DNA from: a virus | Taxonomy: Duplodnaviria > Heunggongvirae > Uroviricota > Caudoviricetes | Virus record (IMG/VR): IMGVR_UViG_2693429518_000023 | Reading direction: 5' to 3' (one strand) | DNA length: 10,738 bases | Shown: positions 9,376 to 9,831 of the stretch, in pieces | How the letters are laid out: the number at the start of each line of letters is the position of its first letter | How positions within the stretch are numbered: the first letter of the stretch is position 1 | Translations under genes and position numbers: made by a program | Notes under the pieces: model-generated | Seen by the model: the letters and a program-made list of their open reading frames with translations, nothing else | The model's database searches: none | What the model was told of the DNA's origin: nothing

Positions 9376-9580
9376 TTTGCTGTAAAGCGAGAGTTAAGTA
9401 GAATTGCTGCGGGTGCTTGAGGCTATCTGCCTCAGGCATGAACACCAAAAGGCAGACAGAGAAAAGCCCCAGTTAACATTACGCGTCCTGCAAGACGCCT
9501 AACATTAATCTGAGGTCAATTTCATGCTAGACACATGTAGGTTAGCCTCTTACGTGCCGAAAGGCAAGGAGAAGCAGGCT
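9376..9580 (+). promoter_or_regulatory. hok promoter and mRNA leader, including the 5' element complementary to the 3' end and an in-frame upstream (mok-like) start
   Basis: Candidate -35 TTTGCT (9376-9381) and -10 TAGAAT (9398-9403). 5' segment UGCGGGUGCUUGAGG (9408-9422) can pair with 3' CCUCAACGCACCCGCA (9786-9801). In-frame ATG at 9524. An antisense Sok-like RNA is expected opposite about 9455-9540 but I could not map it. Confidence 0.4.
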
Positions 9581-9736
9581 ATGAAGCAGCAAAAGGCGAT
9601 GTTAATCGCCCTGATCGTCATCTGTTTAACCGTCATAGTGACGGCACTGGTAACGAGGAAAGACCTCTGCGAGGTACGAATCCGAACCGGCCAGACGGAG
9701 GTCGCTGTCTTCACAGCTTACGAACCTGAGGAGTAA
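9581..9736 (+). CDS. hokD: Hok/Gef-family type I toxin, 51 aa
   Basis: MKQQKAMLIALIVICLTVIVTALVTRKDLCEVRIRTGQTEVAVFTAYEPEE matches my recollection of HokD (RelF). AGGAG RBS upstream of ATG 9581. Confidence 0.9.
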   Translation: MKQQKAMLIALIVICLTVIVTALVTRKDLCEVRIRTGQTEVAVFTAYEPEE

Positions 9737-9805
9737 GAGACCCGGCGAGGGAGAAATCCCTCGCCACCTCTGATGAATCAGGCATCCTCAACGCACCCGC
9801 ACTTA

Positions 9806-9831
9806 ACCCGCTTCGGCGGGTTTTGTTTTTT
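9806..9831 (+). terminator. Rho-independent terminator of the hok mRNA
   Basis: CCCGC-UUCG-GCGGG hairpin followed by UUUUGUUUUUU. A 9-bp GGCGAGGGA-GAAA-UCCCUCGCC stem-loop precedes it at 9744-9765. Confidence 0.7.

Follow-up and report, generated by a model that had tools for sequence, protein, structure and literature searches.

Type I toxin-antitoxin (TA) loci of the hok family have their paradigm in hok/sok (parB) of plasmid R1, and the mRNA elements named in the present study (tac, ucb, dcb, fbi and others) follow the definitions given in PMC9841398. In a phage setting, hokW-sokW of Sp5, the Stx2 phage VT2-Sakai of Escherichia coli O157:H7, has been proven by experiment to act as a type I TA system, with a partial dependence on RNase III and Hfq (PMC8621323). 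HokW is toxic, mutation of the sokW -10 element unmasks this toxicity and sokW RNA supplied in trans relieves it, and after mitomycin C treatment hokW-sokW speeds and increases lysis and doubles phage release (PMC8621323). HokD, whose gene (hokD, or relF) resides in the cryptic prophage Qin of E. coli K-12, is a previously characterised toxic control (bioRxiv 10.1101/2025.08.07.668861). Here we analyse positions 9376-9831 of IMG/VR virus record IMGVR_UViG_2693429518_000023, a 10,738-nt stretch of DNA that we refer to as the window and that represents a lambdoid prophage of the Qin type. We conclude, with a probability of roughly 90%, that this segment is an intact hokD-type hok/mok/sok type I TA cassette of a defective Qin-like lambdoid E. 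coli prophage, which most likely works in an R1-like manner. What we observed directly are the elements in the sequence, the helix that closes the mRNA together with its covariation, the family membership and the identity to HokD. The locus is of an already known kind and is essentially an already known locus, with close homologs that have been experimentally characterised. It adds nothing biologically new to the hok mechanism, and the hypervariability of its Sok-target hairpin is the sole lead worth following from it.

The toxin peptide, MKQQKAMLIALIVICLTVIVTALVTRKDLCEVRIRTGQTEVAVFTAYEPEE, is a 51-aa Hok that begins at the internal ATG 9581 of a 70-codon frame (9524-9736) in the list of open reading frames (ORFs). 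It matches the Pfam family HOK_GEF (PF01848) with E = 3e-23 and 81.6 bits against a cut-off of 22; its match to the NCBIfam Hok subfamily (48.5) is below the curated cut-off of 73. The Hok coding sequence (CDS) is nucleotide-identical to that of K-12 hokD, and RefSeq names a 99.7%-identical copy hokD/HokD. On the plus strand, 9411-9586 matches the entire Rfam model RF01794 ('sok'; 1-157) with 113.5 bits and E = 8e-26, relative to a gathering score of 59. Because this plus-strand match is to a model that stops at the hok AUG, it represents the hok mRNA leader in sense and not the antisense RNA. A preliminary description of this DNA had claimed a complete hok-type locus, and all of the features that it named were recovered in place, together with the Pfam and Rfam matches. 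Its view that the locus is intact and likely functional draws support, as far as the sequence can tell, from the family matches, the covariation of the closing helix, the predicted Sok gene and the identity of the CDS to that of HokD. The RefSeq annotation at the locus contains the Hok CDS only, with mok and sok unannotated. The elements of the cassette are the following.

9376..9404 (+): hok promoter, read from the sequence (-35 TTTGCT at 9376-9381, 17-nt spacer, -10 TAGAAT at 9399-9404)
9411..9422 (+): tac (translational activator element), GGGUGCUUGAGG, at the 5' end of the hok mRNA; placed by Rfam position 1, folds and covariation
9413..9439 (+): metastable hairpin at the 5' end of the nascent RNA, GUGCUUGAGGC / GCCUCAGGCAU
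9459..9532 (-): predicted Sok antisense RNA of ~74 nt, with a start deduced from promoter spacing
9464..9472 (+): ucb, or anti-Shine-Dalgarno element, AAGCCCCAG, expected to hold the mok Shine-Dalgarno (SD) sequence in the full-length mRNA and to pair with tac after 3' trimming
9512..9515 (+): mok SD, GAGG, 8 nt upstream of ATG 9524
9516..9538 (+): upper stem and loop of the Sok-target hairpin, hypervariable among near-identical loci; the opposite strand corresponds to the predicted Sok 5' recognition tail
9524..9736 (+): mok ORF of 70 codons (ORF list), in frame with hok and running through it
9539..9567 (-): Sok promoter, read from the sequence (-35 TTGCCT at 9567-9562, 17-nt spacer, -10 TAACCT at 9544-9539)
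9544..9550 (+): dcb (AGCCUCU), paired with GUAAGAG at the hok stop codon (9733-9739) in full-length folds
9556..9567 (+): GAAA-tetraloop hairpin, UGCC-GAAA-GGCA, immediately 5' of the hok SD
9581..9736 (+): hok toxin gene, 51 aa, with the SD GGAG at 9568-9571
9719..9724 (+): TACGAA at Hok Tyr47, a TadA A-to-I editing motif
9744..9766 (+): hairpin GGCGAGGGA-GAAA-UCCCUCGCC in the 3' untranslated region (UTR), from the minimum-energy fold
9786..9798 (+): fbi (fold-back inhibitory element), CCUCAA(C)GCACCC; placed by folds, covariation and partner search
9805..9831 (+): intrinsic terminator with a UUCG loop, consisting of the hairpin 9805-9822 and a T-run

The two ends of the hok mRNA are joined by a long-range helix. 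The segment TGCGGGTGCTTGAGG (9408-9422) is complementary to CCTCAACGCACCCGCA (9786-9801) over 15 bp with C9792 bulged, and the duplex energy of this 15-mer with the 3' UTR, -27.3 kcal/mol, is matched by 1 of 5000 shuffled 3' UTRs. For the 12-mer 9411-9422, the duplex energy is -21.1 kcal/mol (matched by 4 of 5000 shuffles), and fbi is its best partner on the plus strand of the whole 10.7-kb window. The folding check suggested in the preliminary description gave a minimum-energy structure of 9411-9831 (-166.9 kcal/mol, z = -7.9) that closes on the tac/fbi helix. The 15-bp complementarity noted there is present and beats chance, but the RNA helix is probably 12 bp long. Since the mRNA would start at G9411, the pairs between 9408-9410 and 9799-9801 probably belong to the DNA level, outside the transcript, and these outer pairs are not conserved in the homolog alignment. 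The functional helix in RNA probably comprises 12 bp and one bulge.

A homolog scan with one genome per species gave 53 hok loci, and the covariation alignment, made with MAFFT, holds 39 full-length loci from at least seven genera (Escherichia, Shigella, Kluyvera, Citrobacter, Pseudocitrobacter, Photorhabdus, Pantoea and Erwinia). Left out of it were L004, L014, the second copy in L044, L046, L005 and L042, which are devoid of a cognate tac or fbi owing to 5' rearrangement, apparent 3' disruption or truncation of the K-12 type. All 39 full-length homologs contain a cognate tac/fbi duplex at the same offset, with energies of about -18 to -29 kcal/mol. Compensatory covariation, whose absence had been named beforehand as speaking against the pairing, is present in these homologs: U4-A is replaced by C-G in 11 of the 39 loci, G12-C by A-U in 5 and G11-C by A-U in 1, and G-C to G-U changes also occur. 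GGGUGC/GCACCC of Escherichia, Kluyvera and Citrobacter becomes GGGCGC/GCGCCC in Photorhabdus and Pantoea, and GAGG/CCUC becomes GAGA/UCUC in Photorhabdus and Kluyvera and GAAG/CUUC in Citrobacter youngae. Both sides have changed in 4 of the 12 pairs. Paired cells make up 89.5% of the helix, compared with 32-56% after the 3' partner has been shifted by 1-3 columns, with the unpaired cells of pairs 7-12 inflated by the placement of the Photorhabdus fbi, which lacks the bulge, one column off in the MAFFT alignment; the Photorhabdus helices are intact in per-locus duplexes. The covariation score is 0.206, compared with 0.163 in column shuffles (0 of 500 reach the observed value) and 0.067-0.135 with the shifted partner. 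Without any hint, RNAalifold recovers the tac/fbi helix, with a U-A to C-G change in 11 sequences, as well as the ucb/mok-SD and dcb/stop-codon helices and the 3' hairpin. Could the complementarity between the two ends nevertheless be a chance match, or the by-product of an inverted repeat in the DNA, with no role in RNA? Three of the 15 pairs, the unconserved ones that probably lie outside the transcript, are in keeping with such an origin. However, the observed energies are so rarely reached by shuffled sequences, and the helix is maintained by compensatory changes in genera so distant, that chance complementarity is rejected; moreover, it is the tac/fbi stem already documented for hok-family mRNAs (PMC9841398) that is formed here. 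We regard an origin by chance or inverted repetition as extremely improbable.

The promoters of the cassette were assigned from conservation and from the mutagenesis primers of hokW-sokW, and a strict sigma-70 consensus scan listed neither the hok nor the Sok promoter. Among near-identical loci with 37 distinct upstream contexts, the TAGAAT -10 element is always located 6 nt before GGGTGC, and a -35 element, TTTGC or TTGGC, is retained 17 nt above it. Given this fixed spacing and the coincidence of Rfam model position 1 with 9411, the hok mRNA probably starts at G9411. The locus start at 9376 in the preliminary description corresponds to the promoter -35 element and not to the transcript start expected at about G9411. 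On the opposite strand, the homologous position has a predicted gene for the antisense RNA Sok. This RNA would consist of a 5' tail complementary to the mok start and AUG, a long hairpin and a U-rich CUUUUCUCU tail, with a computed folding energy of -30 kcal/mol (z = -4.8). Sp5 hokW-sokW has exactly the same sequence over the Sok promoter stretch (9539-9569). There, sokW RNA was seen by northern blot with probe YO-592 to this region, and primer YO-421 swaps GGTTAG, the complement of the -10 hexamer, to create a promoter-less sokW mutant (PMC8621323).

The leader and the 3' end contain the remaining regulatory elements. The first 30 nt of the nascent transcript fold into a hairpin of -19.6 kcal/mol, which corresponds to the metastable nascent 5' structure known in R1 hok mRNA (PMC9841398). 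The AAAGCCC of ucb is invariant in the 39 loci and the next C is nearly invariant, and ucb pairs with 9510-9517 in both the minimum-energy and the consensus folds; the mok SD is likewise invariant in the 39 loci. The segment AGCCUCUUAC (9544-9553) was considered as ucb and rejected because PMC9841398 defines ucb as the anti-SD above the mok SD and the box that overlaps the Sok promoter as dcb. Three smaller features of the preliminary description were also borne out: an in-frame upstream start (ATG 9524 of a 70-aa ORF, preceded by GAGG), a GAAA-tetraloop stem-loop (in the minimum-energy fold) and a UUCG-loop terminator (in the terminator scan). At the tetraloop site, homologs have GACC-UUCG-GGUC or GACC-GUAA-GGUC. 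The TACGAA motif is invariant in 39 of 39 loci from at least seven genera, and TadA editing of that codon, from Tyr to Cys, has been described in hokC, hokD and hokE (bioRxiv 10.1101/2025.08.07.668861). The 3'-UTR hairpin exhibits compensatory changes in the consensus fold, and it is likely to form the protective 3' end of the processed mRNA, as judged from R1 (PMC9841398).

We noted one allele, 'CTATG--CGACACATAGAGAT', in 8 aligned loci (for example, L057 and L067), which is aligned to window positions 9521-9541 and has a 2-nt deletion after the mok ATG. In this allele, mok is out of frame with hok. The mok frame thus varies among near-identical loci, which fits mok acting via its translation and not via its product.

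How would such a cassette operate? By homology, we infer where the transcript begins and ends, how it is processed at the 3' end and refolds, how Sok acts and what biological role the locus has, as follows. A modest constitutive promoter would produce a stable mRNA of ~420 nt, from G9411 to ~9830, whose 5' end would adopt the metastable hairpin during synthesis. On completion of the transcript, tac (9411-9422) would pair with fbi (9786-9798) to generate a closed mRNA, in which the mok SD (9512-9515) would be held by ucb (9464-9472), allowing neither translation nor Sok binding. Slow 3' exonucleolytic trimming would then remove the terminator together with fbi, as far as the 9744-9766 hairpin, so that tac could pair with ucb and the mok SD would be placed in a dcb-closed hairpin that presents the Sok-target loop. 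As long as Sok is present, this short-lived RNA (from ~9532 to 9459 on the minus strand) would pair with the mok start region, and RNase III would cut the duplex. Once Sok has decayed, upon element loss, transcription shut-off or prophage induction, mok would be translated, and the coupled translation of hok would yield the 51-aa toxin, a membrane peptide that depolarises the cell and kills it. In the fold calculations, the tac/ucb stem forms in a 5' fragment of 65 nt. If the 9411-9785 transcript is constrained to contain tac/ucb, dcb pairs with the mok SD and the resulting hairpin presents the mok start.

Several points weigh against an intact cassette that works in the R1-like manner. In energy minimisation, the 3'-truncated RNAs (9411-9770, 9411-9775 and 9411-9785) did not switch spontaneously to tac/ucb and instead kept the 5' metastable hairpin, and the open tac/ucb form lies 6-9 kcal/mol above the minimum-energy fold of the truncated RNA. 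The proposed refolding step therefore rests on homology and not on the energy model. The transcript ends, the Sok RNA and the toxicity are likewise attributed to this particular copy from its relatives. In earlier work, chromosomal hokA, hokB and hokC contained all of the elements and yet caused no post-segregational killing (bioRxiv 10.1101/2025.08.07.668861), and an intact structure is thus no guarantee of activity. Finally, the prophage looks defective, with a deletion that removed dicB and a split DnaC-like gene, and a role upon phage induction may therefore be moot.

What, then, is the physiological role of the cassette? One answer is that it has none, and that a structurally complete locus persists as a silent and decaying passenger of the chromosome, like other chromosomal hok loci. 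The state of the host prophage, with its dicB-removing deletion and split DnaC-like gene, is compatible with such decay. However, every regulatory element of the cassette is intact, and the elements are 94-100% conserved over dozens of prophages with an unchanged Hok protein, which argues for purifying selection. Furthermore, the 92.6%-identical hokW-sokW locus is active (PMC8621323), and a copy that has truly decayed, K-12 hokD, is missing its whole leader. We consider silence of the cassette unlikely. A different answer retains the same molecular mechanism and assigns it to phage-mediated lysis and progeny release on induction, as for hokW-sokW, in place of prophage stabilisation. The enhanced lysis and doubled phage release that Sp5 hokW-sokW confers after mitomycin C (PMC8621323) make a lysis aid a serious possibility, albeit one that falls short of even odds, given that the prophage in the window appears unable to replicate or to finish a lytic cycle with its pseudogenised DnaC-like gene. 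The R1-like TA cassette remains our preferred reading of the locus.

Within this R1-like cassette, the Sok-target hairpin stands out by its variability. We compared 61 near-identical loci whose leader is at least 90% and whose 3' UTR is at least 85% identical to those of the window; the 9516-9538 segment was compared across loci L056-L135 and L002-L012. Nearly all of the near-identical loci encode an identical Hok protein, with a few that differ at few residues, and their hok mRNAs are 94-100% identical outside the hairpin. Nucleotide diversity reaches 0.17-0.33 at 9511-9540, compared with at most 0.06 in most of the mRNA, and minor peaks of 0.10-0.15 are located in the loop of the 5' hairpin and in the 3' UTR. 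Polymorphic sites account for 15 of the 23 positions in 9516-9538 and for 32 of the 367 elsewhere in the mRNA (Fisher p = 4e-10). The segment occurs as at least eight discrete variants. In all 16 of the variants listed, the segment forms a hairpin that the same mok-SD/dcb stem closes, and 14 of them keep the upper stem and a 5-9-nt loop via compensatory changes. Among co-resident copies, two complete genomes have three different variants each and one IMG genome has two identical ones, although this is a small sample.

We tentatively suggest that the Sok-target hairpin might be a diversifying 'specificity cassette' of prophage hok loci, an idea that we hold to be rather doubtful at present. If it were true, co-resident prophage hok/sok copies could avoid cross-neutralisation, or an incoming phage could escape the Sok of a resident one, in a manner that would resemble the incompatibility determinants of antisense-controlled plasmid replication. 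Confirmation would bear on how up to 11 hok-homologous copies per genome coexist without cross-talk. A limited search of the literature on Sok cross-talk and target diversification among prophage hok loci found nothing specific.

Outside the cassette, the window has the organisation of a Qin-type prophage and contains the following features.

Left end of the window: int/xis-like ORFs and a truncated exonuclease gene
2565-2616 (-): DicF small RNA (Rfam, 76.7 bits)
Between DicF and the ParE/PaaA2 pair: ydfC
3901-4179 (-): ParE toxin of the RelE/ParE superfamily (Pfam ParE_toxin, E = 1.9e-16)
4181-4372 (-): PaaA2/RelB-family antitoxin (PF21217, E = 1e-19)
4393-4827 (-): 144-aa ORF, a DicA-like repressor whose C-terminal ~50 residues match the DicA model weakly, well below the cut-off
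Right of the DicA-like ORF: YdaS- and YdaT-like genes, then replication genes
6559-6753 and 6790-7299 (+): DnaC-like ATP-binding replication gene, split into two ORFs
Between the replication genes and the tiny ORFs upstream of hok: DUF1627, DUF977 and DUF551 genes
9111-9194 and 9230-9334 (+): tiny hydrophobic ORFs of 27 and 34 aa, directly upstream of hok
Downstream of hok: unnamed 91-aa ORF (9907-10179), then a DUF968 gene

The host prophage is probably defective. Relative to a 99.6%-identical prophage in NZ_CM176579.1, the window is devoid of 1,650 bp at the junction 2544/2545, which in NZ_CM176579.1 contain dicB, the 5'-proximal third of the exonuclease gene and a DUF1482 gene; window positions 1-1002 have no match to that prophage. 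The DnaC-like gene is flagged in a RefSeq relative as a pseudogene with an internal stop. The 3901-4827 region resembles what we take to be the three-gene paaR2-paaA2-parE2 module of O157:H7 prophages. Neither of the tiny ORFs (9111-9194 and 9230-9334) has a family match in Pfam or NCBIfam, and RefSeq lists the 9230-9334 ORF as a hypothetical protein. Between this 34-codon ORF and the hok -35 element, a perfect 22-nt palindrome is present at 9343-9364, with the halves CGATATGGGAA and TTCCCATATCG. It is not a canonical terminator because it is followed by GGTAAAAACGG instead of a T-run. The palindrome region differs in sequence at other loci, where AAAACGGTTTGC is kept.

The cassette is widespread in E. 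coli. A 601-nt query (9300-9900) matches 4,749 of 5,426 complete E. coli genomes, and 2,426 of the 5,426 have a copy that covers at least 80% of the query. The median number of matching places per genome is 2, with a maximum of 11; the best match is 99.7% identical and is annotated hokD, and 78 phage records match. Three non-enterobacterial assemblies, Acinetobacter idrijaensis (L016), Xanthomonas pisi (L021) and a Candidatus Scatousia metagenome-assembled genome (L054), contain an E. coli-type hok with 94-100% identity. Their contigs are very short (275-2,995 bp), and these copies most likely reflect assembly contamination with no real occurrence in those organisms.

Compared with K-12 hokD, the window contains a complete leader and no adjacent relBE. 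The two loci are 98.1% identical over 9567-9830, including fbi and the terminator, and the similarity continues downstream, where the window ORF 9907-10179 and the DUF968 gene align to the rem-to-ydfU interval of K-12 with 83% identity. K-12 hokD has nothing of the window above its SD, neither promoter, tac, ucb, mok start, Sok gene nor dcb, and is abutted there by relE. As K-12 homology begins only at 9567, the window locus represents the intact form of the truncated K-12 hokD. This relationship matters for annotation: the K-12 gene that serves as the 'hokD' reference is a stump, and most E. coli prophages have the intact hokD-type locus instead. The preliminary description had also stated that no relBE pair lies upstream of hok. 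This holds for the immediate neighbourhood, where no Qin-type relB-relE adjoining hok was found and the hok promoter is instead preceded by two small ORFs and a DUF551 gene; it does not hold further away, as the ParE/PaaA2 pair is situated ~5 kb upstream.

Sp5 hokW-sokW exhibits 92.6% nucleotide identity to the window over 9367-9808 and shares the promoter, tac, ucb, the Sok promoter, fbi and the overall layout. The two loci diverge in the Sok-target segment, which differs at 7 of ~17 positions (TCAATTTCATGCTAGAC vs CTCAATCCATGCTGAAC), in the C-terminus of the toxin (VDYESEK in HokW and TAYEPEE in the window) and in the sequence after fbi. The predicted Sok hairpin of the window is in turn ~20 nt longer than that of hokC-type loci.

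The mok frame of R1 is out of frame with hok, in contrast to the in-frame mok of the window. The two loci also differ in that the window cassette resides in a prophage instead of a plasmid and in that their toxins share only distant similarity; the identity between HokW and R1 Hok is 44% (PMC8621323). Despite these differences, the window contains the same elements as R1 hok/sok in the same order, from tac through the terminator, as defined in PMC9841398: tac, the metastable hairpin, ucb, the complement of the Sok terminator, the mok SD and the target loop, followed by dcb with the Sok promoter, hok, the 3' hairpin, fbi and the terminator.

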